Source of the DNA: a virus
Taxonomy: Duplodnaviria > Caudoviricetes
Virus record (IMG/VR): IMGVR_UViG_3300025012_000101
Coordinates: 1-58,446 of that record
DNA: 58,446 nucleotides
Direction: 5' to 3' (one strand)
Each line of letters starts with the position of its first letter. Within the stretch, counting starts at the first letter, position 1. Positions 8,366-44,423 of the stretch are shown here, piece by piece. The position numbers were made by a program, and so were the translations under genes. The notes beneath the pieces were generated by a model that saw only the letters and a program-made list of their open reading frames with translations, did no database searches and was not told where the DNA came from.

Positions 8366-8936
8366 TTGCAGATTCCTTGCACACGAATGGCGCGATATTC
8401 GGCGATGTCCATCCGCCCGGCTTCTTCACTTTGCCGTTTGCGTCCTTGATGGCGACGAGGCCGAGGCCGTTGCAAACTCCGCAATCAACCAATCCTCGTT
8501 CATCGCTAAAATGATGCTTCCCGTTCCCGCATGAACATTCCACCAGCTTTGCCAGATTCGCCCGCGCCACTTCCCCGGCTGCGCCTTCCACGTCAGCACC
8601 TTGAGATAGGGCGCTTCCAATGGTTACCCAGGCAAGGTCGATATCTGCGTCAAGCATGGCGGCGCGGTCTGCAAGCTCAACGGCCTTGTCGAATTCTCCG
8701 ACCTTCATCCCCTGCGAAACGTCATGCAGAATGTCGCGCAAGTGCATCAGTCGCATCACTCCGGAAACATCTGCATCAGGTTCCAGAGATATTCCTTCAA
8801 TCAGTGCATCAACCTTCTCGCACATTTCTTCCGTCTGCAACCCGATATACAGCGCCGTCTGCCGCACGTTGTAGCGGTCTGTGGTGCATCCGATGGCTTC
8901 GGTGAACTGGCGTACTACTTTGATGATGTCGGTCAT
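8358..8936 (-). CDS. MazG-like all-alpha NTP pyrophosphohydrolase with inserted Cys-rich (Zn-ribbon) segment
   Basis: EEMCE, LDADIDLAWVTIG, EVARANLAK and KDANGKVKKPGGW motifs; CSCGNG...CGVCNG insert. Confidence 0.75.
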   Translation of the reverse strand: MTDIIKVVRQFTEAIGCTTDRYNVRQTALYIGLQTEEMCEKVDALIEGISLEPDADVSGVMRLMHLRDILHDVSQGMKVGEFDKAVELADRAAMLDADIDLAWVTIGSALSQGADVEGAAGEVARANLAKLVECSCGNGKHHFSDERGLVDCGVCNGLGLVAIKDANGKVKKPGGWTSPNIAPFVCKESANG

Positions 8937-10246
8937 GCTGCTTCCCCCTTGGTATTTTGGTTAATTGAAATTGATCGTGTTGATCCGGTGTGATTAAGCA
9001 TTGCACGATACGAGCGCAGCGCGTCGGTGCGGTCGCGCCCACCTGATTCGTGCTGACGTAGGCGCTGGTGGTAGCGGCTGCGGATGTAGCGCCCGGCGGA
9101 AATATGTTGCGGCCAGACGACATAACCCAAGAAAGGAATTCCCGCGCTGGCCGGCGCAAGTCGAATCTTGTGTGGATGGATGGTCAGGCCGTCGCTGGCC
9201 AGCTTGGCGGTGATCTGTGCGCATAGGGTTTGTAATTCTTCGTGCGACTCGCCCAGGATCACCATGTCGTCCACATAGCGGATGTAACGCCGGACGCGCA
9301 TGGTTTCTTTGATCCAGTGGTCGAAGTCGTTCAGGAATATGTTGGCGAATAGCTGGCTGGACAGGTTACCGATGGGCATTCCCTTGGCTGCCGTCTGTCG
9401 ATATAGCGTGGATTCATCGAACAGATGGTCGTAGCTGCTATCTGTTTGGAACGAGTCGATTAGGTTGACCAGCAGCACGCGCAGTTCGTGATCTCCGATG
9501 TAGCGCAGCACGCGCTCCTTGAGTAGGGCGTGATTGACCGAGTAGAAATATTTGCTGATGTCGAGCTGCAATACCCAAGTGGCATTATCGCTACGAGCGA
9601 ACTGCGCCAGTCTGCGCACGGCGGCATGGGTGCCTCGGCCTGGCAGGTTTCCGTAGGTATCGTGGATGAACTTCGGCTGCCAGATCGGCAGCAGGAAGCG
9701 GTAGAGCATCCAGTGGACGATGCGGTCTTTCATCGGAGCGTCCACCACATCGCGCCATTTTTTCTCGCGCACGGTGAATGTCTTGTATGGGCCGAAGGTG
9801 TAGCCCCGCTCGCGCAGTCTTTTCTGGATGGCGATCAGATGACGCAGCGGATCAGCAGAGAATCGCTGGATGCGCAGATTGTGAGATTTGTTCTTGCGGG
9901 TATTGAGCCAGCACGCGAACAGATTCGGCAGGCCGGTTAGGTGATGAAAGTCACTACCGCATTCCACTGCGCCACCCGTAGGCATCGCAGCGGTTTCCGG
10001 TTGGGCGTGTTGCCGTGCTTTTGGAACTTGCGCTCCGGGAGATTTTCGACCAAGAGTTGACCTTCCGTGGGTATCCCCAGCGTCTAGGCCGTTTTTTCTT
10101 GGGTCAGCGGAAGCCGATGTTGTCGTTGCGATTGCTGGGCTCGTAGTTGTTGAGATTGAAGACGCCCGCATTCGAGTCGGAACCCCAGCAGCCGCCCCGG
10201 ACGAGCGCATTACCAGACCTTTCAGAAAATCCCCCTCGTTGTTCAT
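8933..10246 (-). CDS. DGR-1 reverse transcriptase (catalytic core from about the ATG at 9985; frame open from 10246)
   Basis: KDRIVH, LQLDISKYFYSV, GMPIGNLSSQLFAN (DGR-type SQ motif), YIRYVDD and FLGY. Confidence 0.95.
   Translation of the reverse strand: MNNEGDFLKGLVMRSSGAAAGVPTRMRASSISTTTSPAIATTTSASADPRKNGLDAGDTHGRSTLGRKSPGAQVPKARQHAQPETAAMPTGGAVECGSDFHHLTGLPNLFACWLNTRKNKSHNLRIQRFSADPLRHLIAIQKRLRERGYTFGPYKTFTVREKKWRDVVDAPMKDRIVHWMLYRFLLPIWQPKFIHDTYGNLPGRGTHAAVRRLAQFARSDNATWVLQLDISKYFYSVNHALLKERVLRYIGDHELRVLLVNLIDSFQTDSSYDHLFDESTLYRQTAAKGMPIGNLSSQLFANIFLNDFDHWIKETMRVRRYIRYVDDMVILGESHEELQTLCAQITAKLASDGLTIHPHKIRLAPASAGIPFLGYVVWPQHISAGRYIRSRYHQRLRQHESGGRDRTDALRSYRAMLNHTGSTRSISINQNTKGEAA
10105..10219 (-). 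repeat. DGR-1 template repeat (TR1), 115 nt, about 22 adenines, AAC-rich
   Basis: Aligns without gaps to 11163-11277 and 16241-16355; all mismatches fall at TR adenines on the minus strand. Confidence 0.96.
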
Positions 10247-11091
10247 GGCTGTGCCTGTGTTGAACGGATAAGTCCGCCGACCAAGCGGCCAAGTTCAACG
10301 GCTAGACCCGCTCTGTGCTCAAAGTTGAGCGCAAGTATGCCTAGCCTTTGAGCCTGTGCGAGATAGTGCTTGATCAGGTCAATATCGGCGGAGAGAGACT
10401 TGAGTAGCTTCTGTTTGTTGTCCTCAAGGCCGTATGCCATAACACCGCGCATGATTCGACCGATGCAGATGCGTAGATTTTCGCCATAGGTGGTGCGCAA
10501 GTCGCGCGGCATCTTGATAATGTCTTGCAGGAGCTGCGTGTCCAGGTCTTGCGCCTTGGCCTTGAGCTGGAAACATGCGGCATCTGGGCTGGATAACAGT
10601 TGGGTGGCAGCAGCCTTGTTCACCTCGCCGCGTTGCTTGAGGTCATCGATCACATCTTGGATGACTTTCGTCGAAACGGATTCCAGTACCGAATTGTTAC
10701 CTGTCGGCTGGCTGGATACATAAACTGTGTGTCCGGTTGCCTGGTTTCCCAGCGCAACGACGTATGGAATGCCGAACTCTTCGACTACCGTCCACAACCT
10801 GCGCTTGAAATTTCCGACTGGAAATCCGATGCGAATATGCGGCTCGGTTGCAGCCCCGACGAGCTTGAGCTTGTACTTTTTCAGCGTAGCCAGCGCGTAT
10901 GCCGTGCGGTCATAGCCATGGAGGAAATTACCGGATTGCACCAATATCAAGTGGCCGGCGTGTTTCTCTTCCAGCTTCTGCGCGATGGTAGCTACCGGAT
11001 CAGCCTGCCCGAGTCCAGCCTCAATGCCCTTAAAGGCGCTGATGCTGAACCTGGTCAGTTCGTCGTTTGTTGGTGTCGGTATTTCTTGCAT
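10243..11091 (-). CDS. DGR-1 accessory protein: N-terminal MutS domain I-like region fused to a C-terminal Avd-like four-helix bundle
   Basis: HLILVQSGNFLHGYDRTAYAL...IGFP resembles the MutS mismatch-binding domain I. KMPRDLRTTYGENLR...ELGRLVGGLIRS resembles Avd. It lies between target and TR. Confidence 0.8.
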   Translation of the reverse strand: MQEIPTPTNDELTRFSISAFKGIEAGLGQADPVATIAQKLEEKHAGHLILVQSGNFLHGYDRTAYALATLKKYKLKLVGAATEPHIRIGFPVGNFKRRLWTVVEEFGIPYVVALGNQATGHTVYVSSQPTGNNSVLESVSTKVIQDVIDDLKQRGEVNKAAATQLLSSPDAACFQLKAKAQDLDTQLLQDIIKMPRDLRTTYGENLRICIGRIMRGVMAYGLEDNKQKLLKSLSADIDLIKHYLAQAQRLGILALNFEHRAGLAVELGRLVGGLIRSTQAQP

Positions 11092-11113
11092 GATGTTCCT
11101 AGTTAATTTTCTA

Positions 11114-11134
11114 GGTCACGGCTACGCCGCGACC
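11114..11134 (-). promoter_or_regulatory. Hairpin 3' of VR1 (DGR target-recognition element)
   Basis: Minus strand GGTCGCGGC-GTA-GCCGTGACC, 12 nt after the stop codon; conserved after VR2. Confidence 0.75.
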
Positions 11135-11146
11135 CGTGACCCGAGA

Positions 11147-11833
11147 TCAGAGACTCTTGGTGCAGCGGAAGCCGATGCGGTCGTGGCGATAGCCGGGCCC
11201 GAAGTAGACGAGATAGAAGACGCCCGCATCCGAGCCGGAACCCCAGCAGCCGCCCCGGACGAGCGCACGACCAGACCAGTTCCGCTCTCCGTCAGGCCGC
11301 CAGCCCATACCTTTTTCTTGCGATGGGTAGGGGGCAGTGGTCAGGCTTGGCGAATCCGCCTTGATGATGGTGGTCAATCCCAAGTCATTGCCCTGCACGT
11401 CGTCAAAAATCCACGAAAATACGTTGCCGTTTAGGTCGCAAACCTTCTCGCCATTCGATAGCGTCAACCAGCGGCGCTCCTTCGCATCGGGTGATTGGAA
11501 CGTACCAGGCTGTGCGCTCGAAACATTTCCTTTGCGCAGTCCACGGAATAGCTTGCCTTCGCCCACTTTCCCCTTAGTCCAGTTGCAATCCTGCTGGGCG
11601 GCATTAAGCCTGATCGCCAGTTCCTGTCTTTCAGTGACGAGCTGGCCGCCAATGTCTACGCACGCCGCTTTTGCTTCTTCAAAGCTGATGCGCACCCACG
11701 GTGTGCCATCCTCGGTGATAACTGCTTTCCCTCCAGCTCCCTTGCTGCAAGCGAACTGCCCATACTGGAATGCGGGAACGACAAGGCCGCTTGGTAGGGT
11801 AGTTTCTGGTACGGTGATGAATAGGTTTTTCAC
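11147..11833 (-). CDS. DGR-1 target protein A (FGE-sulfatase/C-type-lectin fold, C-terminal VR)
   Basis: GTG start at 11833 with GAAAGGGA RBS; PWVRISFEEAKAAC, DLNGNVFSW and RGGCW...IGFRC motifs. Confidence 0.9.
   Translation of the reverse strand: MKNLFITVPETTLPSGLVVPAFQYGQFACSKGAGGKAVITEDGTPWVRISFEEAKAACVDIGGQLVTERQELAIRLNAAQQDCNWTKGKVGEGKLFRGLRKGNVSSAQPGTFQSPDAKERRWLTLSNGEKVCDLNGNVFSWIFDDVQGNDLGLTTIIKADSPSLTTAPYPSQEKGMGWRPDGERNWSGRALVRGGCWGSGSDAGVFYLVYFGPGYRHDRIGFRCTKSL
11163..11277 (-). repeat. DGR-1 variable repeat VR1
   Basis: 15 of 115 mismatches to TR1, all at TR adenines (7 A>G, 5 A>T, 3 A>C). Confidence 0.96.
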
Positions 11834-11858
11834 AATATCCCTTTCGTTCTGGATTGAG

Positions 11859-12680
11859 TTATTTAACGGCGTACTTGCCAAGCATCGCAGGGATGTCGTC
11901 ATTTCCAATTGCATTTACGATGCACTCGGCGAACTGTTCTGCCATTTGCTCTTCGTGTTCTTCGATCTTGATAATGCGCAGATTGATGGCTGGCTTATCA
12001 GCGCCGGTCAGAATCCCAAGGCGCATCACAAAGGTGCGCTCGGCTATGTCCTTATACGGCACGCAAGTAAAACAAATCTCGGTAGGAAGCGGCTCCGTGC
12101 TAGATGCAGTGACACTTTCAAACGCGCTCCTGCTGGCGCTAAGTTGCTGCTCGGCGCTTTCCAGCTTACGCAGCGCTTCAATACTGATCTTGCGCACTGC
12201 CGCAATGGCCTTGTTCGCCGGAACATCAGCGCCGTCCTTGTGGCACGCAATCAAGTTTATCCAGTCTTCAAGAAATTCCGCGATGGCGGATTGCGGGTAT
12301 CCCTTTCCGTCAGCAATTTTGCGCAACGACTCATATGCAGCCGTGCGCTTCTGCTCCAGCCTGGCTGTGTTGTCTGCGTGACCTGGCTTTTCTTGCGTAC
12401 CTAGATTAAGCACGGCAGTTGCAATCATGCTTTCCGGCTCGATGAAGATTGCCGCGCCGAGTTCAGCATTTTTTTTCGCATAGCTTGCGAAGTCGCCGAT
12501 TACGCTCGTTACCATTGCTCCACGCAAACGGCGGCGCGTAGGCATGAACTTTTCGAGGTCGTGTATGTTGTGGTCAGAAGGTAGTGCGATAGCGCCGGTG
12601 GATTGACGATCTATTGCCGCGTTTGCAGCCTGAATTGCTTGAGCCTTTGAGAGTTCTTTTATTACGTCTGCGTCAAACAT
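11859..12680 (-). CDS. YfdQ / DUF2303 family protein
   Basis: LEKFMPTRRRLRG, AVLNLGT--PGHADNTA and AEFLEDW motifs; follows a YfdP-like gene. Confidence 0.85.
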   Translation of the reverse strand: MFDADVIKELSKAQAIQAANAAIDRQSTGAIALPSDHNIHDLEKFMPTRRRLRGAMVTSVIGDFASYAKKNAELGAAIFIEPESMIATAVLNLGTQEKPGHADNTARLEQKRTAAYESLRKIADGKGYPQSAIAEFLEDWINLIACHKDGADVPANKAIAAVRKISIEALRKLESAEQQLSASRSAFESVTASSTEPLPTEICFTCVPYKDIAERTFVMRLGILTGADKPAINLRIIKIEEHEEQMAEQFAECIVNAIGNDDIPAMLGKYAVK

Positions 12681-12706
12681 GATTTATCCTTATATTTAGT
12701 TGATAC

Positions 12707-13081
12707 TTATTTGTTTTTTACTTCGCCAGTTTGTTTGTCCAGAAAGCTCATCTGATTTTCTGGTGCAAGTGAGAGGCGACCATATTTGCCGACATGCAGA
12801 GGCGTTACGCGCTCCTCTTTCTCGCCTGCTGTTCCGTTCAGAGTAGGGCGCGTGAAGCTGAGTTGATGAGCGCAATGAACTTGCGTGGTTCCGGGGATGC
12901 GCTTGAAACTGAATTTAAGCGTCACATCTCCAACGCGGTCGTTGTCGATTACCGCCGCCGCAACCTGAGAAAGCGCCAGAGATAACTTGCGCTCTAACAC
13001 TCCTCCATCCAGGTCTTGAATGAAACCACCGACATCTGTTCCAGCATCACTTTCTTGTTGTGCTGCGGTTTTCTGATTCAT
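12707..13081 (-). CDS. YfdP-like phage protein
   Basis: FIQDLDGGVLERKLSLALSQVA and TPLHVGKYGRLSL; usual pairing with DUF2303. Confidence 0.75.
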   Translation of the reverse strand: MNQKTAAQQESDAGTDVGGFIQDLDGGVLERKLSLALSQVAAAVIDNDRVGDVTLKFSFKRIPGTTQVHCAHQLSFTRPTLNGTAGEKEERVTPLHVGKYGRLSLAPENQMSFLDKQTGEVKNK

Positions 13082-13111
13082 GCTCTTCGCTCCTTTTGTG
13101 AGTTAAATAAT

Positions 13112-13333
13112 TTACTTGGTAAGGTAGCCTGCAATGCCACGCGCTATTGCTGGCCTGCTCCAGTTCGCCATTGCGCGCAATTTCGTGCGCATCCAGCGTG
13201 GTCGCGCTTTAAGTAGCGCATCATGGATCGGGCGCAGCGATACCGGATTTTCAGGGTGCTTGTCGTTGTAGCTCTTGCTGTTGTTGCCGACTACATTGGC
13301 GTTCCTGATTGCAGTTATAGATTGCTTTTTCAT
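13112..13333 (-). CDS. Hypothetical basic protein
   Basis: ATGA-coupled to the upstream exonuclease gene. Confidence 0.55.
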   Translation of the reverse strand: MKKQSITAIRNANVVGNNSKSYNDKHPENPVSLRPIHDALLKARPRWMRTKLRAMANWSRPAIARGIAGYLTK

Positions 13334-15102
13334 GCTACCTTCCTTTCTTCGTGCTGAATGTCGCCACGGAACTCTTGCAGAATCCAGTCCAAAGCGGCTT
13401 CATTGGTTGTGCCAAAAGTGGTTGCAACAGCATCGAGCAGTTCGGCGCGATTGGGGCGGCGCGGCGAAATTGCCTGGGCGACGGATACCGGTGCGACGGC
13501 GTGCATCACGTCGGCAAGCGTAATGGCTCCGGCTTCTTCTCCTTGAGCAGGTAATGTTGCCGGTGACGGGAACGGCCATGTAGCGACCGGGAGGGCGATA
13601 GGTGCAGGCTTTGCGTCCTGCTCATCCTTGAGCTTTGCAGCAGCCTCTATAGCCGCTTTGGCGCGCTCTTCTTCATCCGCCTTTGCTTTGGCTTCTGCTT
13701 CTGACTTTGCGCGAGTGGCGGCTTCGGCCTCAATCTTGGCCTTGGCTTTGGCTTCTTCCTCAATGCGCATTACTTCGCGCTCAGCTTCCAGCTTTTCTGC
13801 TTCGGCGACTTGGTGATCTTTTATGCGGGTTGTGATCACCAGCTTAAAATCATCCATCGGCTTGCTGATAATTTGCGCAAGATCGTTGAACAGGAAACCG
13901 AACCCGGCGGAAGTTTCTTTGCACCACGTCAGTTTGGCGAGAATGTCCTTTGCTGCTGCATCAGCTGCAATCTTTCCGTTGGCCAGTGCAGTATCGACCG
14001 CATCCATCCATGCCGACACCAGACGCTTGCCTTTCATCGCCCCGGCAAAGTCTGGCTGCTGAATATTCAGACGAATTGGTTTGATCCAAGCTTCGAGCGC
14101 GGAGATGTGTTCGGAATAAGCCGTCTTGGCACCATTCAGGATCTCCAGCTTCTTCGCTTCCTTTTCCTTCTCGACATCCTTTTCAAGTTTTAGGGCGGTG
14201 ATGCGTAAATCTTCGTGCCATGCGTCTATCATGCGCGCCGCCGCACCTATGGTCAGAGTCTGCTCAAGCATCGCTTCCTTCGCGAGCATGAGCTTCTTGC
14301 CGGTCTCGCGGTATAACTTGGCGGCAGCCTCAGCATTGGAGAAATCCTGATCAGTTACGAGGCTAGTAGCGCGGACTGTTGCCAGCGAGGCCGCCAGCGC
14401 CTTTCCGAACTCGGCCATATTGTCGTCTGTGATTTCTCCCTTCGCGTGGACGAATAGGGCCGGAAGGGACAGGATCGCTTCGGCAGCAGGCTTCTCGATA
14501 ATCTCGACGTGCTGATAGTTTTCTCGGTCTTTGTTGAATTGCTCCCATCCTGCGCGGATGCGCTCGAACCAAACAGGATCAGGCAATATATCCATGCTGA
14601 CCATGCGCTCTTCGGTGCCGTCTGATACCGTGAATATCCAACTTTCTGCACCGGATACCATCAGGCATTGCTGTGGTTGTGCCATAAATTCATCTGGCAA
14701 TTCTTTCGCTGATACTGCGGCAGCAAGTGTTTCATTCCACTGTTTATGCTCCCATCCTTTGGTGCCCGACATGCGAAGACCATCGCACGAAGCTGAAGTG
14801 CGTCCGCGAGACAGCACGACCGGATATAGCTTGCTGCTTATCTGACGCTCGACGATTGGCCTAGCCAGCGCCTCTACCTCATGCCCGTAGTCAAGGATGT
14901 TTTCCTGCACCCATGAGCTGAACTCCTTTGTGATTCCGGATGACTTCATGCGCAAAAGTTCGGTGCGTGACGTTTTTTTGGATAGGCCAAGCATCGCAGC
15001 TGCTTCGCTTGCTCCATCATGGCTCATGCGGAATTCAATCCATTCAGGAGACCCCTGGATAAGTTCGTGCTCGATCAGCTCTTCTGTCATCATCTCGTCC
15101 AT
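13330..15102 (-). CDS. YqaJ-like (lambda exonuclease family) recombination nuclease with long coiled-coil C-terminus
   Basis: QGSPEWIEFR, GASEAAAMLG, GHEVEALAR, ASCDGL and WEHK motifs. Confidence 0.88.
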   Translation of the reverse strand: MDEMMTEELIEHELIQGSPEWIEFRMSHDGASEAAAMLGLSKKTSRTELLRMKSSGITKEFSSWVQENILDYGHEVEALARPIVERQISSKLYPVVLSRGRTSASCDGLRMSGTKGWEHKQWNETLAAAVSAKELPDEFMAQPQQCLMVSGAESWIFTVSDGTEERMVSMDILPDPVWFERIRAGWEQFNKDRENYQHVEIIEKPAAEAILSLPALFVHAKGEITDDNMAEFGKALAASLATVRATSLVTDQDFSNAEAAAKLYRETGKKLMLAKEAMLEQTLTIGAAARMIDAWHEDLRITALKLEKDVEKEKEAKKLEILNGAKTAYSEHISALEAWIKPIRLNIQQPDFAGAMKGKRLVSAWMDAVDTALANGKIAADAAAKDILAKLTWCKETSAGFGFLFNDLAQIISKPMDDFKLVITTRIKDHQVAEAEKLEAEREVMRIEEEAKAKAKIEAEAATRAKSEAEAKAKADEEERAKAAIEAAAKLKDEQDAKPAPIALPVATWPFPSPATLPAQGEEAGAITLADVMHAVAPVSVAQAISPRRPNRAELLDAVATTFGTTNEAALDWILQEFRGDIQHEERKVA

Positions 15103-15103
15103 G

Positions 15104-16159
15104 TTATTGACCTTCCTTTTCCCATGCGTCAATCTGGAATTGCTGTTCGTCGGTCAGGATCATCGAAGTTTTTGCGGTAGCGATGATTGCCTTTGCCTTT
15201 TTCTTTCCGCTACGCACCAGTGGCTCCCATTCTTTGCTCAGTTCAGCGAACTGCTCGGCGGTGCAGGCTTGCAACTCTCCCTTTCCGGCAGGCTTGCCGG
15301 TTTCTCCATTGCCTTGTTCTGCCTTGTTTTGCATCACGCTTTGCCAAGTCGCTTCGCCATCCTTGATCGCGCCGAAGATTCCACGCAGCGTCACGATTTG
15401 CGGCGGTGAGCATTTGGCTAGGTCATGCCCGAGATAGGAGGCCAGATCGGTCGCGGTAACTCCGATGGAAGAGAATGCGTCCACGATGCGCTTACGCTCT
15501 GCGTCAGGGTCTTTTGCCGCATCGTCCAAGCGAATCTTTTTGATGATCTCTTCAGCTTCATCGCATAAATCGCCTGGGATGATGCGCAGTCCGAGTGAAC
15601 GCATGGCCTTTGAGATCAACGCGCCGCGCTTATTGAGCAGGTCATCGTCAGTGCCTAGTACGGTGTAAACGTCCTTGTTGTAGCTGTTCTTGCGCACGCT
15701 GATGTAGGAGCCATCGCTATTCGGCTTGCTGCGTTCAACAGTTTTCGACACGCGCACGTCAAGCGGGTAGGTAATATTCGCTTCCAGATCGGTGACTGAA
15801 ACGCGGTGAACTTCTTTTTGCTCATCCTCGAAGATCATGGTGGTTTCGACCAGCACGTTCTTCATGCAGCGCAAGGCCACCTCAACAAAACGGATGCCCA
15901 AACCTTCAACGCCTTGTCCGATTGGCTTGATGTAGTAGGCGCTCTTGTTGTTGGCGAACGATGGCCGGCGGCATTCTTTGAGCAGTTCTTGCCGCACCGA
16001 ATCCATGTTGCGCGGATTGCGCATCGCCATGATGTAGCGTGACTCGACCATCGCCTTCGACTGTGCCGCGATCGCTGTTGATGCTGTTTCGACAACCGCC
16101 ATAGTCCGGCCTGTGCCGCCGAAATCTTCTTGTGTTGCCAGTGCTGTTCTATTGTTCAT
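15104..16159 (-). CDS. Putative single-strand annealing/recombination protein
   Basis: Directly upstream of the YqaJ exonuclease in the Red-like position; conserved-looking VEGLGIRFVE and LRIIPGD segments. Family not recognised with certainty. Confidence 0.55.
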   Translation of the reverse strand: MNNRTALATQEDFGGTGRTMAVVETASTAIAAQSKAMVESRYIMAMRNPRNMDSVRQELLKECRRPSFANNKSAYYIKPIGQGVEGLGIRFVEVALRCMKNVLVETTMIFEDEQKEVHRVSVTDLEANITYPLDVRVSKTVERSKPNSDGSYISVRKNSYNKDVYTVLGTDDDLLNKRGALISKAMRSLGLRIIPGDLCDEAEEIIKKIRLDDAAKDPDAERKRIVDAFSSIGVTATDLASYLGHDLAKCSPPQIVTLRGIFGAIKDGEATWQSVMQNKAEQGNGETGKPAGKGELQACTAEQFAELSKEWEPLVRSGKKKAKAIIATAKTSMILTDEQQFQIDAWEKEGQ

Positions 16160-16191
16160 GGTGTGCTCCTGATGTAATTTTGTTTAGCGAA

Positions 16192-16212
16192 GGCCACGGC
16201 TGCGCCGCGACC
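16192..16212 (-). promoter_or_regulatory. Hairpin 3' of VR2
   Basis: Minus strand GGTCGCGGC-GCA-GCCGTGGCC, 12 nt after the stop codon, the same spacing as for VR1. Confidence 0.75.
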
Positions 16213-16224
16213 CGTGACCAGCGA

Positions 16225-36496: not shown

Positions 36497-36527
36497 GTCG
36501 GCCTCTTGAGTGAGGCCGACGCTTTTT
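36497..36527 (+). terminator. Hairpin/terminator after the capsid gene
   Basis: GTCGGCCTC-TTGAGT-GAGGCCGAC followed by GCTTTTT. Confidence 0.65.
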
Positions 36528-36558
36528 ATTCGCAACACCTTCTATAAGGAATTGAAAA

Positions 36559-37005: not shown

Positions 37006-37066
37006 GCCGTAGCAAAACCACAACAGGGCGGCTTCGGTCGCCCTGTTCCATATTTAGGAGGCCGCA

Positions 37067-37846
37067 ATGGCAAAGATGATCGGAGTCCGCTACATCGGGC
37101 TTAAAGAAGAAGTAGAGGACACGGTAACCAACAGTGGTGCCATATGGAAACAGGGCCAGATTCACAACTTCTCGGATACTATCGCGCGCCAGTTGCTTGT
37201 GCATACCGACTCGTTTGAGGAAGTGAAGCCGGAAGTGTCAGGCGGCAACTTTCTGAGCGGCAAGGTCGGCGGTAAGATCATCGAAGCTGCCTCATACGTC
37301 AATCTAAACGCAATGGGCGTGGATCAATTGCTCCACTATGCCCATGTCGAATTCAACAGAATCATCAATCCATCCGGCAAGACTGAAGGCGAGCTGCGCG
37401 GCGAAGTGCAGACGATGATGACCATGGCGACACTGGACGAAGTTCGCCGTGATGGCGAAGTTGTATGCGAAGAGCCGCGCTTTAAGGCGTTCGTCTCTGT
37501 AACGCAGGCGGAATTGGACGCACTCAATTCTGGCGAACTCACGGTTAAGCTGGTTCCGTTCGTGCCGGAAGAGGTCGCTGGACTGGTTACGGATCAAGTT
37601 GTCCAAGAAGGCGCTGGAAATGTGGATATACAACCCGTAAACGCCGGGCCTTCTGTACCTACAGAAGGTGCAGGCTTAAGCGATGCTGCTGGCAAGTCAG
37701 CCATACCGACGGCGGAAGAAATCACTGCCATGAACAAGGCGCAGTTGCTGGCGATCGGCTCATCCCAAGGTATTTCGCTAAACGACTCTGCGCCCGCTGT
37801 CACGCTACGCAAGCAGTTGATCGAAGCGCTGCACCCAACTGTTTAA
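37067..37846 (+). CDS. Virion morphogenesis hypothetical protein
   Basis: Strong AGGAGG RBS; VRYIG-KE---D N-terminus; small helical C-terminal domain. Confidence 0.65.
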   Translation: MAKMIGVRYIGLKEEVEDTVTNSGAIWKQGQIHNFSDTIARQLLVHTDSFEEVKPEVSGGNFLSGKVGGKIIEAASYVNLNAMGVDQLLHYAHVEFNRIINPSGKTEGELRGEVQTMMTMATLDEVRRDGEVVCEEPRFKAFVSVTQAELDALNSGELTVKLVPFVPEEVAGLVTDQVVQEGAGNVDIQPVNAGPSVPTEGAGLSDAAGKSAIPTAEEITAMNKAQLLAIGSSQGISLNDSAPAVTLRKQLIEALHPTV

Positions 37847-37858
37847 CAAGGGGCTGAC

Positions 37859-38530
37859 ATGCTCGTTTCCGTTGTTATTGGCCGCGCCGGTACGATTTTG
37901 CAAGATGCGACTGGCGTGCGCTGGCCGGAAGCCGAGTTGGTTGGTTGGCTGAACGATGGCCAGCGCGAGGTCGTGCAGGTTCGCCACGACGCATCTGTAT
38001 CCAATGGGGCAATTACTCTGATAGCTAACAGCGCAAAGCAGACATTGCCTGCTGGTTCGATTGCACTGCTTGGAATCAGCCGCAATCTTGGCACCGATGG
38101 GCTTACTCCAGGTGCGCCAATCAAGCTGACGAAACGCGAGTATCTGGATGCGCTGGTTCCGACATGGCATACCGATGCCGGGCAGGCGGCTATCAAGCAC
38201 TACTGCAATGACGTGCTTGATCCAAAGCACTTCTATGTTTATCCGCGCCCTCATGCGACAACTGCGGTGCAGGTAGAGGCTCTGCTGTGCGTGCTTCCTG
38301 CGGATTGTGCGCTGCCAAGTGCAACGCCGAGTGCAGCACTTACGCTGGCTGATGAATATGCGAATTCCTTGGTTGATTACATCTTGTACCGCGCATTCAG
38401 CAAGGACACTGAAGCCGCGAGCGCGCAACGTGCATCTGATCACTACGCCTTGTTTATGACATCGCTTGGCGTAAAAACAAAGTCTGATGTAGCGACAAAC
38501 CCTAACACCAAGACAGGAGCGCCTGCGTAA
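37859..38530 (+). CDS. Head-tail adaptor (DUF6682-like)
   Basis: LQD--VRWPEAELVGWLNDGQR, FYVYP and LVDYILYRAFSKD. Confidence 0.75.
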   Translation: MLVSVVIGRAGTILQDATGVRWPEAELVGWLNDGQREVVQVRHDASVSNGAITLIANSAKQTLPAGSIALLGISRNLGTDGLTPGAPIKLTKREYLDALVPTWHTDAGQAAIKHYCNDVLDPKHFYVYPRPHATTAVQVEALLCVLPADCALPSATPSAALTLADEYANSLVDYILYRAFSKDTEAASAQRASDHYALFMTSLGVKTKSDVATNPNTKTGAPA

Positions 38531-39192
38531 TGGCTACGACACAATTTAGCGCATTTCTGCCAAGTATCCTGATCGATGTTCTTGGCTGTCCGGATATTCT
38601 GGTAGAGCGAGAAGTTCGTAATTCGGCAATCGACTTCTGCCGTAGATCACAGGCTTGGCGTGTGCAGCTTGACCCGATTTCGGTGGTAGCCAATGTCGAT
38701 ACTTACGACATTGACCAATACGGCACGGTTGTCGAAAAAATCATTGATGTGTTCTACACCGGCATTCAGCTAACGCCAAAAACGTATGGTGAGATCAACG
38801 CGCAGCGCAAACTCGCAATCTCAATTGCACTAGGCACGACATTGGACGGCGTGCTACCAGCGGTCAAATTCTTTGCACAGCAAAATCCATCACAAATCGT
38901 TTTGTATGGGATGCCTGATGCCAGCTATGTGGATGGCCTGTTGATAGACGCCGTGCTTGTGCCAACTCGCACTTCAACCGGCATGGATAGTGTAATTGCA
39001 GATCGCTATTGGGATGCGATTGTGCATGGGGCAAAGCATCGACTGATGATTGTGCCAAGCAAGCCATGGACAGACGCCAATCTTGCAGCGTGGCACAAGA
39101 CACAGATGGATAACTTGGTTGATAGCGCAGGCATCGAAGCCGTCCGCGGTTTCAATAATGCGCCGATCAGAACCAAGACATATTTGAGGTAA
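38530..39192 (+). CDS. Second adaptor/tail-tubular-A-like protein
   Basis: VLGCP...SAIDFCRRS and AIVHGAK-RLM-VP-KPW. Confidence 0.7.
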   Translation: MATTQFSAFLPSILIDVLGCPDILVEREVRNSAIDFCRRSQAWRVQLDPISVVANVDTYDIDQYGTVVEKIIDVFYTGIQLTPKTYGEINAQRKLAISIALGTTLDGVLPAVKFFAQQNPSQIVLYGMPDASYVDGLLIDAVLVPTRTSTGMDSVIADRYWDAIVHGAKHRLMIVPSKPWTDANLAAWHKTQMDNLVDSAGIEAVRGFNNAPIRTKTYLR

Positions 39193-39260
39193 TTATTCGC
39201 ACCACCAGCTACTCGAAGTAAAGGTTTCACGCATTCCCTGGCGTTACAGGGCGCAACCGC

Positions 39261-39284
39261 AACCCGCTCTAAGTGGGTTTTTTT
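39261..39284 (+). terminator. Rho-independent terminator
   Basis: AACCCGC-TCTAA-GTGGGTT-TTTTT. Confidence 0.7.
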
Positions 39285-39310
39285 ACGTCCCAACTATAGG
39301 AGATTCAATC

Positions 39311-39709
39311 ATGCCAGGTGCATTTTCAAACTACATGGAAGCAAAGATCGTTGACGCATTCCTGCGCAACACGCCCTACACCCCAGCTGCCACCGTCTAT
39401 CTGGCGTTGTTCGAGTCAGACCCCGGCGAAGATACAGGCGGCACGGAAACGGCATTCACCAACTATGCACGTCAGGCTGTGGCATGGACGGCGCTTGATG
39501 GAGCAGGGCAGACTAAGAACTCCGCTCTGGTAACCTTCCCAGCCAACGGCAACGCCTCAGCTTCTGCGACCATCACCCACATCGGCATCTATGACGCTGC
39601 CACCACCGGCAACCGCTTGTTGTATGCCGCGCTGACCGCGCCAAAAACATTGGCTCCCGGCGACGTTCTGGCCTTCGCCGCCAATGCGTGTGTGTTCACG
39701 CTGGACTAA
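39311..39709 (+). CDS. Small tail-fibre-associated structural protein
   Basis: FSNYMEAK, VYLALF--DP, YARQAV and THIGIYDAATTGN-L. Confidence 0.7.
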   Translation: MPGAFSNYMEAKIVDAFLRNTPYTPAATVYLALFESDPGEDTGGTETAFTNYARQAVAWTALDGAGQTKNSALVTFPANGNASASATITHIGIYDAATTGNRLLYAALTAPKTLAPGDVLAFAANACVFTLD

Positions 39710-39713
39710 ATAG

Positions 39714-40877
39714 ATGTTGCTTAACGGCTTCGCGCTCAACAGGGCGGCGCTTAACGGCGCTGCACTGCTGGCGATCCTGTATGGAGGGGTATCGGGTACT
39801 GCTGGCGCGACAGGATCTCCTGTGGCGACAAAGACGCAGTATGCGCATGTAGCGGCCAACTCTGGAGTGGTGGTAACGCTCGAAGCTTATGAAAAAGACT
39901 ATGGGTTTACAGTCGGCTCTGCTGGCGCAGTATCGCTTGTAACGTCAACACAAAGCCATTCAGCAAAATCAGCGCTGAGCGCTGGCGCAACTGGCATTGC
40001 GTTCGTTTACAACGCTCGCTTTGCTTACGCTGGAGGCGACTGTTCCGCCACTGGCTACGCGCTGCCAAATAGTAAGCTGGCTGATGTGGCGGCCAGTAGT
40101 GGCGTTTCAGGAAGCTTTATTTCAACGCTTAACCAGCATGCCAAATCCAGTGTGTCAGGAACGGCGGCAGGCACGGCGGAAGGGGTAAAGACACAGCATC
40201 CAGCAGTGACAACGGCACCAGGCTGCGCAGGGTATGCGGATTGGCAGTACAAGGCATCAGGCGGAAGCACTTGGCTGCACGATGGTCACGCTTGGGCAAG
40301 CGCAGGCGGCATTCTTGCGGTGGACGAAACCAAGTACAAGGTTGTCATCGGGGATGGCTTAATTGCCACGGCGGAAGCTTCTGTTGTTGCGCGTGCGTAT
40401 GTCGAGTGTCGCGCAAGATCATCTACATCCTGCAACGCAACAGCCACATCAGAAGCAATCAGAACTGCCTACGCAACAATGGCAGGTACGGTTGGGTGCG
40501 CGAATGTGTCAGTGGCAACCTACAACCACATGGCAAGTGTGGCGGGTGCGTGTGGCGTGCTTTACACACAGCAACCGAACTTTGTCACTGTTGCAGGTAC
40601 TGGCAGCGCAGAGGGAATCGGAATTGCGTCCGCGCAGATCAACGGGATGATTGTCAAATTTGCAGGCAGTGCAGTGCCATGCGGCGCGACTGGGTTAGCA
40701 GCCCCTTATGTTCTTAAATTTGGCGCATTCAGCGTTTCCGCTTCCGTCTCCGTAACGGCGAATGCCTTTGGTAATGCCGGTGTTCACGCCACCACAGATA
40801 GAACCATGACCGTGCCAGCAGAAAATCGCGGCATGGCCGTGCCATTTGATGATCGAATTATGAGGTTAACCGCATGA
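39714..40877 (+). CDS. Ala/Gly/Ser/Thr-rich fibre-like structural protein
   Basis: LNGFALN-AALNG N-terminal repeats; low-complexity repeats. Confidence 0.65.
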   Translation: MLLNGFALNRAALNGAALLAILYGGVSGTAGATGSPVATKTQYAHVAANSGVVVTLEAYEKDYGFTVGSAGAVSLVTSTQSHSAKSALSAGATGIAFVYNARFAYAGGDCSATGYALPNSKLADVAASSGVSGSFISTLNQHAKSSVSGTAAGTAEGVKTQHPAVTTAPGCAGYADWQYKASGGSTWLHDGHAWASAGGILAVDETKYKVVIGDGLIATAEASVVARAYVECRARSSTSCNATATSEAIRTAYATMAGTVGCANVSVATYNHMASVAGACGVLYTQQPNFVTVAGTGSAEGIGIASAQINGMIVKFAGSAVPCGATGLAAPYVLKFGAFSVSASVSVTANAFGNAGVHATTDRTMTVPAENRGMAVPFDDRIMRLTA

Positions 40878-41149
40878 TACTCGGAACATTTACCAAGCAA
40901 CCGGCGGATAAGTTTGATTATGACATCGACTACACGGACTGGCTGACATCAGGCGACAACGTACAGGGCGCAATAGTCTCAGGAGATGCCGGAATTACGA
41001 TTGATTCGACCTTTATCAATGATCCGCGCATCAAGATTTGGCTGTCCGGCGGCACGGCTGGAGCAACCTATAAAGTGACCTGCACCATGACCAGCTCAGA
41101 CGGCAGAGTGCGTCAGGACGAATTTAAGATTCGCATCAAGGAGTATTGA
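40874..41149 (+). CDS. Fibre-tail adaptor-like small protein
   Basis: FTKQPAD-FDYDIDYTDWL...IWLSGGTAG-TYKVT...GR. Confidence 0.7.
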   Translation: MILGTFTKQPADKFDYDIDYTDWLTSGDNVQGAIVSGDAGITIDSTFINDPRIKIWLSGGTAGATYKVTCTMTSSDGRVRQDEFKIRIKEY

Positions 41150-41152
41150 TAG

Positions 41153-42718
41153 ATGATTCAACTTTTCGCAAATAACGCCGCCAGCCTGCTGGCATCCAGC
41201 CTGACCAACGTAGCTACCAGCTTGTCGATTACGGCTGGTGCAGGGGTAAAGTTCCCGTCTCCAACCGGAGGCGATTATTTCAAGGCAACATTGTGCCAAC
41301 TTTCGGGCGTGGACGAGGTAAATTTCGAGATCGTGAAAGTGACGGCAAAATCAACCGATACTTTTACTATTGTCAGGGCGCAGGAAGGCACAACGGCGCT
41401 GGCATTCAATGCAGGCGACAAGTTTGAATTGCGAATCACTAAGGGAACGCTTGAGACGTTTGCGCTGAACTCAAGCGACAACATCAATAACGTTGGCATT
41501 CCAGGCGCAGCCGGGTTTGGCGTTGGCATTTGCCCGACGCTCCCAGCAGGGTTTGTTGCAATGTCTGGATACGATCAGCCAGGCACAGACAACTACGGCA
41601 ACTATCAGTACAGCGACGGCAGTATCATGGTCTGGATACCAGCCTTCTTTTACAAGTACGGCACCGGATCGAATGGTTTTGCAGTCAACATCGTGGATAT
41701 TAAGCCGGAATCGGCTTACGCGAATGAAGCGGCTGCCAATGCCGCAGGTTATGCGCTACATCGGGCATTTTACGATGGCGGCGCGGTGCAGCGCGGCGTG
41801 TTCGTTGACAAGTATAAATGCTCTGCCAATGCTGGCATCGCATCCAGCATCAAAAACGGCATTCCGATGTCGAGCAATTCTGCCAATAATCCGTTCAGCG
41901 TCTGCACTGCAAACGGCCAGACGCCGGCACAGTTTTACTACGGCGCTATTGCCGCCGCGAAGTCGCGCGGAAATAACTTTTTCCCCGGTAGTATGTTCAT
42001 TCGTGGCGCGCTGGCGCTGCTGGCGCTGGCACACGCGCAAGCCTCAACCGCAACGACGTGGTGCGCCTGGTATCACGCCACAAACAACTTCCCCAAAGGC
42101 TGCAACAACAACGCGCTTGGCGATCAGAACGATGCAGAACTGTTGTTTGTAACGTCCGGGTACTCAACCGCCAATAAAACCGGCAGTGCGAACGTGCTGG
42201 CCAAGACCACGCACAACGGTCAGAACTGCGGCGTGGCTGATGTGAACGGCACGTTATGGGAAGTGTGTCTGGGCATCACGTCCGATGCGACCAACTTCTA
42301 CGTCCTCAAAACCAGCGCGGCGATGAAGAACATCACATCAGGAAACACCGGCGCTACAGACGCATGGGGCGCTACCGGCATTACTGCGCTATACGACAGC
42401 CTCGGCGCGACCTACGGTGCGCTGACTGCATCCAGCACGGCAAAGTTATATGGCTCGGCAACACAGGTGTTTGATGCTGCAACCAGCGGAAATGCGTGGA
42501 ATGCAGCTGGCGCAGGAATTCCGCTGGTTGGTGGTGTTGGCGGAACGAATGCCTTTGGCAATGACGGTCTATGGGATTACAGGCCAAACGAGATGTGCCC
42601 GATTGCCGCGGGTAGCTGGAGCGCCGCGGCGGCCGCGGGGGCGTGGGCGTTGAATCTCAGCACCGTGCGTGGCAGCTCGGCCACCACCGTTGGGTTGCGC
42701 GCGGCCTTGTATCTTTGA
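41153..42718 (+). CDS. DGR-2 target: tail fibre / major tropism determinant-like receptor-binding protein with C-terminal CLec VR
   Basis: N-terminal virion anchor (FANNAASLL, EIVKVT, TIVRAQEGT); MVWIPAF, VDKYKCS and HNGQNCGVADVNGTLWE; VR at the C-terminus. Confidence 0.92.
   Translation: MIQLFANNAASLLASSLTNVATSLSITAGAGVKFPSPTGGDYFKATLCQLSGVDEVNFEIVKVTAKSTDTFTIVRAQEGTTALAFNAGDKFELRITKGTLETFALNSSDNINNVGIPGAAGFGVGICPTLPAGFVAMSGYDQPGTDNYGNYQYSDGSIMVWIPAFFYKYGTGSNGFAVNIVDIKPESAYANEAAANAAGYALHRAFYDGGAVQRGVFVDKYKCSANAGIASSIKNGIPMSSNSANNPFSVCTANGQTPAQFYYGAIAAAKSRGNNFFPGSMFIRGALALLALAHAQASTATTWCAWYHATNNFPKGCNNNALGDQNDAELLFVTSGYSTANKTGSANVLAKTTHNGQNCGVADVNGTLWEVCLGITSDATNFYVLKTSAAMKNITSGNTGATDAWGATGITALYDSLGATYGALTASSTAKLYGSATQVFDAATSGNAWNAAGAGIPLVGGVGGTNAFGNDGLWDYRPNEMCPIAAGSWSAAAAAGAWALNLSTVRGSSATTVGLRAALYL
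42593..42707 (+). repeat. DGR-2 variable repeat VR3
   Basis: 18 of 115 mismatches to TR2, all at TR adenines (11 A>G, 7 A>C). Confidence 0.96.
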
Positions 42719-42742
42719 TGCCTGAGCGATAGCGATGGGCAT
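42718..42742 (+). promoter_or_regulatory. Imperfect hairpin 3' of VR3, overlapping the avd start
   Basis: ATGCCTGAGC-GATA-GCGATGGGCAT. Confidence 0.5.
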
Positions 42743-43145
42743 TCACGATGAGGCGAAGCTGGATAAGAAATTCATGGAATTCGCCAAGTTGATGAACATC
42801 CACCTCAACCACTTCCCGAAGCATGAGAAGTACGGACTCGCGCTTGAAATCAGGCGTGCTGCCTATGAGATGTATGGCTTTATCGTAGAGGCGCAAAAGC
42901 GCTATCACAAGAAAACCGCAATGACCAACCTTGATACCCGGCATGAGCAGTTGCGCATGTTGGTGCGCCTTGCGTACACGCTGGGGTATTTTGAATTCAA
43001 GGATGGTCAGCGTGCAGAAAAATCACCATCCGAGTTAGGCGAGCATCGTTATCTCGCGCTGTCTCGGCTGGTGGATGAATTAGGCAGGATGATCGGCGGA
43101 TGGATTGTCGCCGAGCGCCTGCTTGATAAACGGGAGGCGTCTTAA
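42735..43145 (+). CDS. avd: DGR accessory variability determinant
   Basis: HFPKHEKYGLALEIRR...VDELGRMIGGWI; lies between target and TR. Confidence 0.92.
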   Translation: MGIHDEAKLDKKFMEFAKLMNIHLNHFPKHEKYGLALEIRRAAYEMYGFIVEAQKRYHKKTAMTNLDTRHEQLRMLVRLAYTLGYFEFKDGQRAEKSPSELGEHRYLALSRLVDELGRMIGGWIVAERLLDKREAS

Positions 43146-43146
43146 T

Positions 43147-43261
43147 ATGTGCCCGATTGCCGCAGGTAACTGGAACAACGCGGCGAACGCAGGAGCGTGG
43201 GCGTTGAATCTCAACAACGTGCGTGACAACTCGAACAACAACGTTGGGTTGCGCGCGGACT
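43147..43261 (+). repeat. DGR-2 template repeat (TR2), about 29 adenines
   Basis: AAC-rich ungapped copy of 42593-42707. Confidence 0.96.
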
Positions 43262-43400
43262 CGGTTTCACCTCACAGGCCGCATTTTGGTCATAGTGGAA
43301 TCAAGGGAGACGCTTTCCGGCGCGTGGTGAAAGCCACGGCGAAATCGGTATGCTTCCGCCTTTCTGGTAGGGCGGAAGATCGTCTCGAAGGTCTGGCGAC

Positions 43401-44423
43401 ATGAAGCGTATCGGCCATCTATATGAGCAGGCTTTTACCCGCGAGGCGTTGCTGATCGCATTTCACGCGGCGGCGCGCAACAAGCGCGGCAAGCGTGCTT
43501 GCTTCAACTTTGAAAAAAGCCTCGCCAGCAATCTGGACGCCCTCCACAACGAGCTGAGTAACGGGAGTTATAAGCCGCGCCCATACTACAGTTTCATGGT
43601 CTACGAACCGAAGCCGCGCCGCATCTATGCTCCGGCCTTCCGCGATCTGGTGGTGCAGCACGCCATCTATCGCGTGGTCGCGCCAATCTTCGAGTGCGGA
43701 TTCATCGACCAGTCGTTCGCCTGCCGCATCGGCTACGGAACACACAAGGCCGCAGATTACGCGCAGGCCGCATTACAGCAGATACCGCGCGACAGCTACA
43801 CACTCAAGCTGGACATCCGCAAGTTCTTCTACCGCATCGACCGCAGCATCCTGCGCACGCAGATCGAGCGCAAGATCAAGGATGCCCGCTTTGTTGACCT
43901 GATGACGATGTTCGCCGACCACGGCGAACCGGAAGGCATCCCAATCGGGAATCTACTGTCGCAACTCTACGCGCTGATCTACCTGAACCCGCTGGATCAC
44001 TACATCAAGCGCGAGCTGGGCATCAAGCACTACTGCCGATATGTGGACGATTTCGTGTTATTTGGTATCAGCCGCGAGCGAGCGCTGGAATGCCAGCGCC
44101 TGATCATTGATTTCATCCGGCGCGAACTCGGTCTGGAGCTATCCAAGTCTACCATCGCGCCAGTGGCGCGCGGCATCAACTTCGTCGGCTATCGCACCTG
44201 GGCTAGCAAGCGCTTCATCCGCCGCCACAGTCTAGGTAATTACCGCGTAGCGATGCGCCGTGGTGAGATTGAATCCGCTGCATCAATTCTTGGCCATGCA
44301 CGCCATACCCATTCGTTGCAGCACATGCTGCGTTATTCCAAGGAGCAGCACCATGCCAACCATTGTCGCCTACCGCAAATATATCGATCCAGAGATCACG
44401 CGCGAACTTCGCCTGCCTGTTGA
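43401..44423 (+). CDS. DGR-2 reverse transcriptase
   Basis: APAFRDLVVQHA, LKLDIRKFF, GIPIGNLLSQ, YCRYVDDF and NFVGY. Confidence 0.96.
   Translation: MKRIGHLYEQAFTREALLIAFHAAARNKRGKRACFNFEKSLASNLDALHNELSNGSYKPRPYYSFMVYEPKPRRIYAPAFRDLVVQHAIYRVVAPIFECGFIDQSFACRIGYGTHKAADYAQAALQQIPRDSYTLKLDIRKFFYRIDRSILRTQIERKIKDARFVDLMTMFADHGEPEGIPIGNLLSQLYALIYLNPLDHYIKRELGIKHYCRYVDDFVLFGISRERALECQRLIIDFIRRELGLELSKSTIAPVARGINFVGYRTWASKRFIRRHSLGNYRVAMRRGEIESAASILGHARHTHSLQHMLRYSKEQHHANHCRLPQIYRSRDHARTSPAC

Follow-up and report, generated by a model that had tools for sequence, protein, structure and literature searches.

We analysed a stretch of viral DNA of 58,446 bases, referred to here as the window, which is one IMG/VR virus record (IMGVR_UViG_3300025012_000101; Duplodnaviria, Caudoviricetes) and encodes two diversity-generating retroelements (DGRs), designated DGR-A and DGR-B. 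DGR-A spans 8933-17133 on the minus strand and contains a reverse transcriptase (RT), a template repeat (TR), an accessory gene and two target genes with their variable repeats (VRs). DGR-B spans 41153-44423 on the plus strand, in the order fibre gene (with its VR), Avd, TR and RT (Table 1). Exactly two matches to RVT_1 occur in the window, at 9119-9763 (minus strand) and 43614-44195 (plus strand), together with two repeat families, one at 10097-10219, 11155-11277 and 16233-16355 and the other at 43147-43261 and 42593-42707. Both RT frames are intact and each encodes YVDD and an IGNL(S/L)SQ motif, the SQ motif being a mark of DGR RTs. A first-pass annotation made from the letters alone had proposed two complete DGRs in this genome, and every part that it listed was recovered at its position.

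In both repeat families the mismatches between TR and VR are concentrated at TR adenines. TR-A differs from VR-A1 at 17 positions, 16 of which are TR adenines (hypergeometric P = 1.7e-12), and from VR-A2 at 18 positions, 17 of them adenines (P = 1.7e-13). Over 119 nucleotides (nt), TR-B and VR-B show 20 mismatches, 18 at A (P = 1.4e-11), and within the 115-nt core all 18 mismatches are at A. Of the TR adenines, 25 of 26 in DGR-A and 27 of 30 in DGR-B fall at the first or second codon position. The lone non-A mismatch of each DGR-A pair is found at the extreme 3' end, where TR-A reads GCTGACCC and both VRs read GCTGCACC; this is the position expected of a difference between IMH (initiation of mutagenic homing site) and IMH*.

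Table 1. Features of the two DGRs and of the surrounding phage genome, in window coordinates
Feature	Position	Strand	Evidence and remarks
RT-A	8933-9985	-	RVT_1 E 1.3e-27; phrog_1423 E 8e-104; YVDD and IGNLSSQ; frame open up to 10246
Stem-loop TGGG-GATA-CCCA	10067-10080	-	spacer 3' of TR-A
TR-A	10097-10219	-	adenine-specific mismatches to two VRs
DGR-A accessory gene	10243-11091	-	282 aa; bAvd E 9.6e-4, phrog_3206 E 1.7e-7, NF033474 E 7.6e-8
Hairpin after VR-A1	11114-11134	-	9-pair stem, GTA loop
Target A1	11147-11914	-	255 aa; PF03781 E 5.7e-6, FGE-sulfatase/C-type-lectin fold; VR-A1 11155-11277
Hairpin after VR-A2	16192-16212	-	9-pair stem, GCA loop
Target A2	16225-17133	-	302 aa; PF03781 E 1.2e-5; VR-A2 16233-16355
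Target B, tail fibre	41153-42718	+	521 aa; VR-B 42593-42707; tail-fibre PHROGs at N-terminus, phrog_2889 at C-terminus
GATA-loop element	42719-42741	+	after VR-B; overlaps Avd-B start
Avd-B	42735-43145	+	136 aa; bAvd E 3.9e-17, phrog_3206 E 7.6e-24, NF033474 E 1e-21
TR-B	43147-43261	+	repeat family and adenine bias
RT-B	43401-44423	+	RVT_1 E 1.3e-15; phrog_1423 E 6e-107; YVDD and IGNLLSQ
Integrase	4318-5295	leftward	PHROG/Pfam
RecE-like nuclease	13330-15132	leftward	PHROG/Pfam
SSB, methyltransferase and DUF2303 genes		leftward block	PHROG/Pfam
CI-like repressor	20098-20733	leftward	PHROG/Pfam
Replication initiator and helicase loader	21343-22831	rightward	PHROG/Pfam
Terminase	29706-31873	rightward	PHROG/Pfam
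Major capsid protein	35207-36487	rightward	PHROG/Pfam
Gp77-type fibre-tail adaptor	40874-41149	rightward	PHROG/Pfam
NinB, portal, fibres, internal virion proteins		rightward block	PHROG/Pfam
Giant open frame	51189-58446, then 1-4310, across the record ends	+	about 3,800 aa on the 58,317-bp circle

The target of DGR-B is a tail fibre whose gene directly follows that of the Gp77 fibre-tail adaptor (40874-41149). By protein comparison RT-B shares 59% identity with the RT of Pseudomonas phage Bise and 40.5% with Brt of BPP-1. DGR-B is a BPP-1-type cassette that would rewrite the lectin tip of the fibre and so change receptor binding.

For RT-A, the longer frame 8933-10246 covers TR-A, so the ATG at 9985 is the probable start. 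RT-A could alternatively be a defence-type RT (DRT/UG or retron-like) beside which the repeats are incidental. PADLOC DRT/UG models do match both RTs (RT-A: RT_UG17 E 1e-33), and the neighbouring gene at 7316-8365 matches PDC-M41B and PDC-M30B. However, it is a generic RT model that gives the best PADLOC match, and the scores of RT-B, a relative of BPP-1, are similar; the NCBIfam models for Drt2, Drt3a, Drt3b, Drt4, Drt5 and retrons stay far below their cut-offs for both RTs. Within the family, moreover, adenine-specific TR/VR pairs accompany the RT in 11 of 13 viral loci and in all 22 bacterial-genome loci, and the accessory protein is Avd-like. We find a defence-type RT hardly credible here, and treat RT-A as the RT of a DGR.

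The accessory protein of DGR-A scores under the Pfam and NCBIfam cut-offs for bAvd and NF033474, and bAvd was matched in all 37 relatives scanned. In its AlphaFold2 (AF2) model the C-terminal part forms an Avd-like helix bundle (pLDDT 70-90), whose top fold matches are the Avd chains of 8ub7 (the BPP-1 DGR particle) and 4dwl (TMt about 0.8, rmsd 2.2-2.9 Å, E 0.02-0.13). The C-terminal half is accordingly modelled as a four-helix-bundle bAvd fold. For the N-terminus, hhalign aligned residues 32-81 with residues 12-61 of E. coli MutS at E 0.0083, with a probability of only 4.8%. A PDB profile search with the N-terminus gave no relevant match, and a PF01624 scan of the window at E 10 gave zero matches. 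A likeness of this part to MutS domain I is suggested, not established. Two genes downstream of RT-A, the gene at 7316-8365 (minus strand) matches the PADLOC defence-candidate models PDC-M41B (E 4e-75) and PDC-M30B (E 1e-73) as well as phrog_2045, and relatives of it are found near RT-A in several other loci.

Each VR is followed by a hairpin. After both VR-A copies its sequence is GGTCGCGGC-G(T/C)A-GCCGTG(A/G)CC. For the DGR-A family we compared the VR 3' flanks of 12 viral and 21 bacterial-genome loci, 62 distinct flanks in all, leaving out two VR rows without a recognisable IMH core and, by hand, one flank in which the core matched upstream of the true end. All nine pairs of the homologous hairpin are present in 54 flanks, and 61 have eight or more; among 1000 shuffles of ten of the flanks, 12 reached nine pairs and 156 reached eight. 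Paired changes occur in the stem (CGGC/GCCG, CCGC/GCGG, CTGC/GCAG, CCCC/GGGG and ACGGC/GCTGT), and the loops are GTA, GCA, AAA or GNRA-like tetraloops. In the spacer 3' of TR-A, the stem-loop also shows paired letter changes among 12 relatives, for example TGGGCATGCCCA, TCTGCACAGCAGA and ATGGCATTGCCGT (read by eye).

The element after VR-B has a GATA loop. Its GAGCGATAGCGA core is conserved in the sub-clade of the window, and its outer 4-bp stem varies among relatives by paired changes (TGCC/GGCA, GCCC/GGGC, GGCC/GGCC and CCCC/GGGG); in more distant relatives the VR is followed by an 8-bp GC stem whose loop is GATA, GAGA or GAAA. This reading was made by eye on the first 32 of the 68 loci with a TR/VR pair, out of 80 loci scanned. 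Single-sequence folding of the VR-B, TR-A and TR-B flanks gave z-scores that were not significant, and we therefore accept the hairpins from comparative data only. The difference between a GNA triloop and a GATA loop, noted in the first-pass annotation, is seen in the window; given the loop variety of the DGR-A family, the GNA triloop is one form of a family feature.

Several lines of evidence indicate that the two cassettes are distinct. The identity between RT-A and RT-B is 33% over 254 aa. A maximum-likelihood tree was built from 56 RT sequences by a quick search without bootstraps; some long reference branches were flagged in it, neither clade of interest among them. The RT-A clade unites 24 rows, namely the window, 13 bacterial-genome loci and 10 viral records; its SH-aLRT support is 100, and its branch measures 1.76 changes per column. 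Opposite this clade are the RT-B family and all ten reference phage RTs, and RT-B groups with Bise at 100. The accessory genes also differ, one encoding a 136-aa Avd and the other a 282-aa protein that is Avd-like in its C-terminal part only, and the two proteins have a common stretch of just 22 residues. The best ungapped identity between a TR and a VR of the other system is 39-41%, against 84-86% for cognate pairs. These results bear out what had been claimed or expected at first sight, namely distinct RT clades, different accessory genes and VRs that each match their own TR only. The description of the TRs as unrelated holds at the nucleotide level only, since both encode the end of a C-type-lectin fold and have a short core in common.

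Comparative evidence for the activity of both systems is provided by a relative of the window, G002, in which both cassettes and all three VRs recur. This record, from a different metagenome, is 61,468 bp long and rated 100% complete. The TR-A sequences of the window (G000) and G002 differ at 13 of 123 sites, and their TR-B sequences at 14 of 115. At the five non-A differences in TR-A, the four VRs carry the TR base of their own genome in 20 of 20 cases and the other base in none; at the ten non-A differences in TR-B, the two VRs do likewise (20 of 20, other base 0). Together with the adenine-specific mismatches, this tracking means that both TRs have been copied into VRs since G000 and G002 separated. 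On this comparative evidence, both DGRs have homed since the lineages split.

These data also bear on the possibility that one active RT serves both TRs, or that one cassette is a decaying relic. Both RTs are of the DGR type, and the two TRs, which have a short core in common, each encode the end of a lectin fold, as such an arrangement would allow. It sits poorly with two intact RT frames, each with the catalytic YVDD, with the retention by both cassettes of an accessory gene of their own, and with IMH ends and hairpins that differ between the families and are conserved within each. Since the VRs of both G000 and G002 all track their own TR at non-A differences, both TRs were copied recently. 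We regard a shared RT or a relic cassette as quite improbable, and two functioning systems as the better account.

A two-DGR genome could also be the product of a chimeric assembly of two single-DGR phages. The record is classed as linear in IMG/VR, metagenome contigs can be chimeric, and TR/VR repeats break assemblies. Bases 1-126, however, are 100% identical to 58318-58443, and this exact end repeat indicates that the genome, of about 58,317 bp, is either circular or terminally redundant; CheckV rates the record 97% complete. In run X1, put together by a different assembler, a 41,481-nt Logan contig covers 23408-24000 at one end and 4300-6571 at the other, a length that exactly fits the path from 23408 through the record end to 6571 on the 58,317-bp circle. 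The contig closes the circle and joins DGR-B to the integrase side at a depth of 16.3, and the DGR-A pieces have depths of 15.4, 16.4, 15.5 and 16.3. The X1 contigs break at TR-A, VR-A1 and VR-A2, as expected of repeats or variable sites. Pieces identical to the window (0 other letters) are present in runs of two other samples, one of them from another study. Moreover, G002, from its separate metagenome, has the circular gene order of the window: integrase, SSB, DGR-A, RecE-like gene, replication genes, virion genes and DGR-B. The co-location and even coverage that the first-pass annotation had named as a check were thus found (16.3 against 15.4-16.4), excluding a chimera as far as these data allow, and we consider one very improbable. 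The end repeat stops three bases short of the record end, which may be why the record is classed as linear. A 116-nt X1 contig over VR-A2 (16223-16338) has a depth of 10.7, against 15.5-16.3 in its flanks; this could mean that part of the population has other VR-A2 sequences, although it is only a hint.

The layout revealed by PHROG and Pfam scans is of the temperate lambdoid type, and the genome is that of a temperate lambdoid-type podophage (Table 1). An open frame that runs across the record ends has segments matching phrog_30335, phrog_616, phrog_14770 and the DarB-like antirestriction family, all giant phage proteins, as well as an endolysin/transglycosylase-like segment at about aa 630-815; its product is probably a giant ejected virion protein. 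Three DNA methyltransferase genes, at 6411-7319 (minus), 23337-24062 (plus) and 25138-26712 (plus), are present in this 58-kb phage. In a DNA search of GenBank phages (50,697 records), 30371-50000 found no match and 4318-21704 a single match of 158 nt, so the phage has no close cultured relative in that collection. The named relatives of DGR-A proteins are almost all from Betaproteobacteria (Gallionella, Thauera, Aromatoleum, Undibacterium and Pseudoduganella, the last four with cultured isolates that carry the DGR-A family) and the window DNA occurs in groundwater metagenomes; the host is probably a groundwater betaproteobacterium.

The targets of DGR-A differ in setting from the fibre rewritten by DGR-B. 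A1 and A2 are paralogues that have a common 300-nt repeat of 85% identity. Their VRs end 8 nt ahead of the stop codons, and TR-A rewrites the last 40 or so codons. The AF2 model of A2 (pLDDT 89.6) finds its best solved-structure matches in TaqVP (5vf4) and Mtd (1yu2), both variable proteins of DGRs, and in formylglycine-generating enzymes (FGE), and A2 is on this basis predicted to be a lectin-fold variable protein; a PDB sequence search with the target family gave no match. A2 has an extra N-terminal domain of about 75 aa (16909-17133, minus strand; consensus GLYxKFNVxRTDG...KH...YFVLNL...AYA..C), which also occurs on its own in phage proteins of 74-180 aa and is 47% identical to a protein of Burkholderia phage BcepF1. 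For the first 80 aa of A2, the ESM Atlas returned one unnamed cluster with a score of 0.75, which is not usable. No hydrophobic N-terminal signal is visible in A1 or A2 when the sequences and the family consensus are read by eye. The family is large: at E <= 0.001, A2 has 707 relatives and the accessory protein 376. All 22 bacterial-genome loci contain an A-biased VR, 18 of them two to four VRs, and their targets are always directly upstream of the accessory gene. In the viral loci, adenine-specific TR/VR pairs were found in 11 of 13.

The question arises whether A1 and A2 are themselves virion or receptor-binding proteins, such as particle-attached adhesins, so that both DGRs would serve host range. 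Their fold is the lectin fold of Mtd and of many phage tail-fibre tips, and most known phage DGR targets are structural, as described in the text of Benler et al. (PMC8008677). Against this, A1 and A2 share the leftward block with the genes for the RecE-like nuclease, SSB and DUF2303, and 24 kb separates them from the fibre genes. Both proteins are small (255 and 302 aa) and lack a fibre-type N-terminal anchor, and their homologues in the 22 bacterial-genome loci keep to the place directly upstream of the accessory gene. Both are also 84-88% identical in G003 and A1 is 86% identical in G001, two phage genomes in which a portal, capsid or terminase in common with the window was not detected. 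The targets thus move with the early block rather than with one particular virion, which makes a virion role unlikely. We infer instead that A1 and A2 act outside the virion; from the lack of a visible signal peptide, their place in the early/recombination block and their travel with that block, they may act inside the cell.

The two DGRs may also be expressed at different times. Gene order suggests, by analogy with lambdoid phages, early leftward expression of DGR-A and late rightward expression of DGR-B. Upstream of the DGR-A block on the minus strand lie a strong terminator-like site at 18722-18705 (AACCCGC-TTCG-GCGGGTT followed by a T run) and then a promoter-like site at 18674-18646 (TTGACT-17-GATAAT), the best in the region; a further terminator-like site, at 5411-5396, follows the block.

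The pairing of two RTs recurs in related phages. In our small sample we found four further two-RT phage records (G001, G002, G003 and G015), three of which contain both TR/VR sets. Two RTs are present in 3 of 10 related records that carry the DGR-A accessory gene and in 1 of 12 long records that carry a DGR-B-type RT (G015). Compared with the window, the virion proteins of G002 are 26-64% identical (portal 37%, capsid 49%, fibre 64%), whereas its DGR-A parts are 82-92% and its Avd-B and RT-B 86-87% identical. G003 (84,410 bp, with terminal repeats) and G001 (a provirus) have no portal, capsid or terminase in common with the window at E 1e-5, and yet they keep RT-A, the accessory protein and target A1 at 86-98% identity (A1 at 86% in G001), with A2 kept in G003 at 84%. 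Each has a second RT unlike RT-B. That of G003 is sister to BPP-1 Brt (SH-aLRT 99) and has its own TR/VR in a tail protein gene. That of G001, at the end of the provirus record, has a weak 50-nt repeat pair with five of seven mismatches at A, and we count it as an RT and not as a proven second DGR. G015 is a complete phage of 53,474 bp with terminal repeats and two DGRs, at about 17837-20555 and 27989-30954 (loci L155-L157). One is a DGR-B-type fibre cassette and the other a third kind of DGR, whose RT groups with that of Burkholderia phage Magia. The TR of this third kind (19437-19544) differs from VRs at 18363 and 18766 only at A (14 of 14 and 16 of 16 mismatches), and its targets are small phrog_4245 proteins beside a ParB-like gene. 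The contrasting identities of virion and DGR proteins in G001, G002 and G003 indicate that early and late modules have been shuffled separately, each with its own DGR. The combination of a fibre DGR with a non-structural DGR recurs, with DGR-A in G000, G002 and G003, and with an unrelated RT clade in G015.

Overall, these results very probably describe one circular temperate phage genome of about 58.3 kb in which two complete DGRs operate in parallel, each independent of the other. DGR-B, situated in the late virion block, would rewrite the C-type-lectin tip of the fibre and with it receptor binding. DGR-A, with its long-branched RT clade and fused accessory protein, lies in the leftward block with the recombination genes, where a single TR would rewrite two small non-virion lectin-fold proteins. 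Each RT/accessory pair would use its own TR RNA and recognise its own VR end (IMH and hairpin), so that there would be no cross-feeding between the systems. Module shuffling would account for the origin of the pair: related phages would exchange the early block, which carries DGR-A, separately from the late block and its fibre DGR.

A number of points weigh against this reading. The N-terminal 170 or so residues of the DGR-A accessory protein are modelled at pLDDT below 50, and the likeness of this family to MutS_I (PF01624) is weak, with matches in 13 of 37 relatives and a best E of 0.016. TR-A and TR-B have the short AATCTCAACAAC core in common, and the view that RT-A does not act on TR-B, nor RT-B on TR-A, is drawn from comparison of the repeats, RTs and VR ends. 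Early and late expression is argued from gene order; across 4300-21700, sites resembling promoters and terminators are no commoner than in shuffles (8 against 10.6 and 18 against 21.1), and for this reason we claim no transcription units from the scan. The non-virion role of A1 and A2 is likewise argued from their context. Finally, run X1 is probably the source sample itself, so its even depth is a second assembly and not second data; it is contig-level evidence, and the differences that the contigs show come mostly from related strains.

As a more tentative extension, which we hold possible though doubtful, DGR-A may be the type example of a widespread system of betaproteobacterial prophages. 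In such a system the phage would diversify one to four cytoplasmic lectin-fold binders against changing intracellular opponents (proteins of host defence or of competing phages), and incompatible RT, accessory protein, TR and IMH would keep it apart from the fibre DGR. If so, A-type targets would form a phage-side repertoire of ready-made binders, for counter-defence or for the exclusion of other phages, and the recurrence of a fibre DGR with a non-structural DGR would reflect two separate arms races of one virus. The DGR-A variable proteins belong to a large uncharacterised family, probably of non-virion proteins, whose binding partners would widen the known uses of viral targeted hypermutation.

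Taken singly, each cassette is of a known kind, DGR-B being BPP-1-like and DGR-A probably of the MSL class. BPP-1, like the phage described here, is a temperate podophage. DGR-B resembles the BPP-1 DGR (mtd-avd-TR-brt) in gene order, in its bAvd-family Avd, in an RT 40.5% identical to Brt and in a hairpin with a 4-nt loop after the VR. It differs in that RT-B falls, together with Pseudomonas phage Bise (59% identity), in a sister clade, and in that the hairpin stem of the window's sub-clade is interrupted and overlaps the Avd start codon. As described by Wu et al. (2018, NAR 46:11, PMC5758913), MSL proteins are 112-283 aa long and the DGRs that bear them all also have avd. DGR-A resembles these MSL-type DGRs ('Architecture D') in the size of its accessory protein (282 aa, at the top of the range) and in the presence of an Avd function; the likeness to MutS domain I would be a further parallel, but it is weak and fell short of significance here. 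As far as that description, with its 16 cases, goes, DGR-A differs in that the MSL-like and Avd-like parts are fused in one 282-aa protein.

The closest precedent for the A-type targets, as a phage DGR target outside the virion module, is the Quimbyvirus DGR. The text of Benler et al. (2021, Microbiome 9:78, PMC8008677) describes this target as encoded on the opposite strand, with genes for methyltransferases and nucleases around it, and reads it as non-structural and involved in phage-host conflict. In Quimbyvirus, however, one RT and one TR serve both the structural and the non-structural targets, whereas the window splits these jobs between two unrelated DGRs. Phage DGRs are usually a single cassette, as the first-pass annotation had stated, and GenBank phages agree: among the 50,697 records, 164 match RT-A at 164 places and 159 match RT-B at 159, none with two. 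The published full text searched contained no two-DGR phage, only cellular cases and single-DGR phages with two targets; survey supplementary tables (e.g. PMC8144416, PMC5758913), which lie outside that search, may list multi-DGR viral contigs. Several DGRs per cellular genome, sometimes of different RT clades, are described in the texts on Trichodesmium, Nanoarchaeota, Bacteroides and Syntrophobotulus (PMC8867640, PMC4372165, PMC11601372, PMC5758913). As these sources present them, such genomes are megabase chromosomes, with the DGRs often on separate mobile elements, whereas here both lie in a 58-kb phage. What is new is the presence of two complete cassettes of different clades, both recently active, in one small phage genome. 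With each component (RT, accessory protein, TR and type of VR end) present in two versions in one cytoplasm, this phage and its close relative G002 constitute a natural experiment in DGR specificity.

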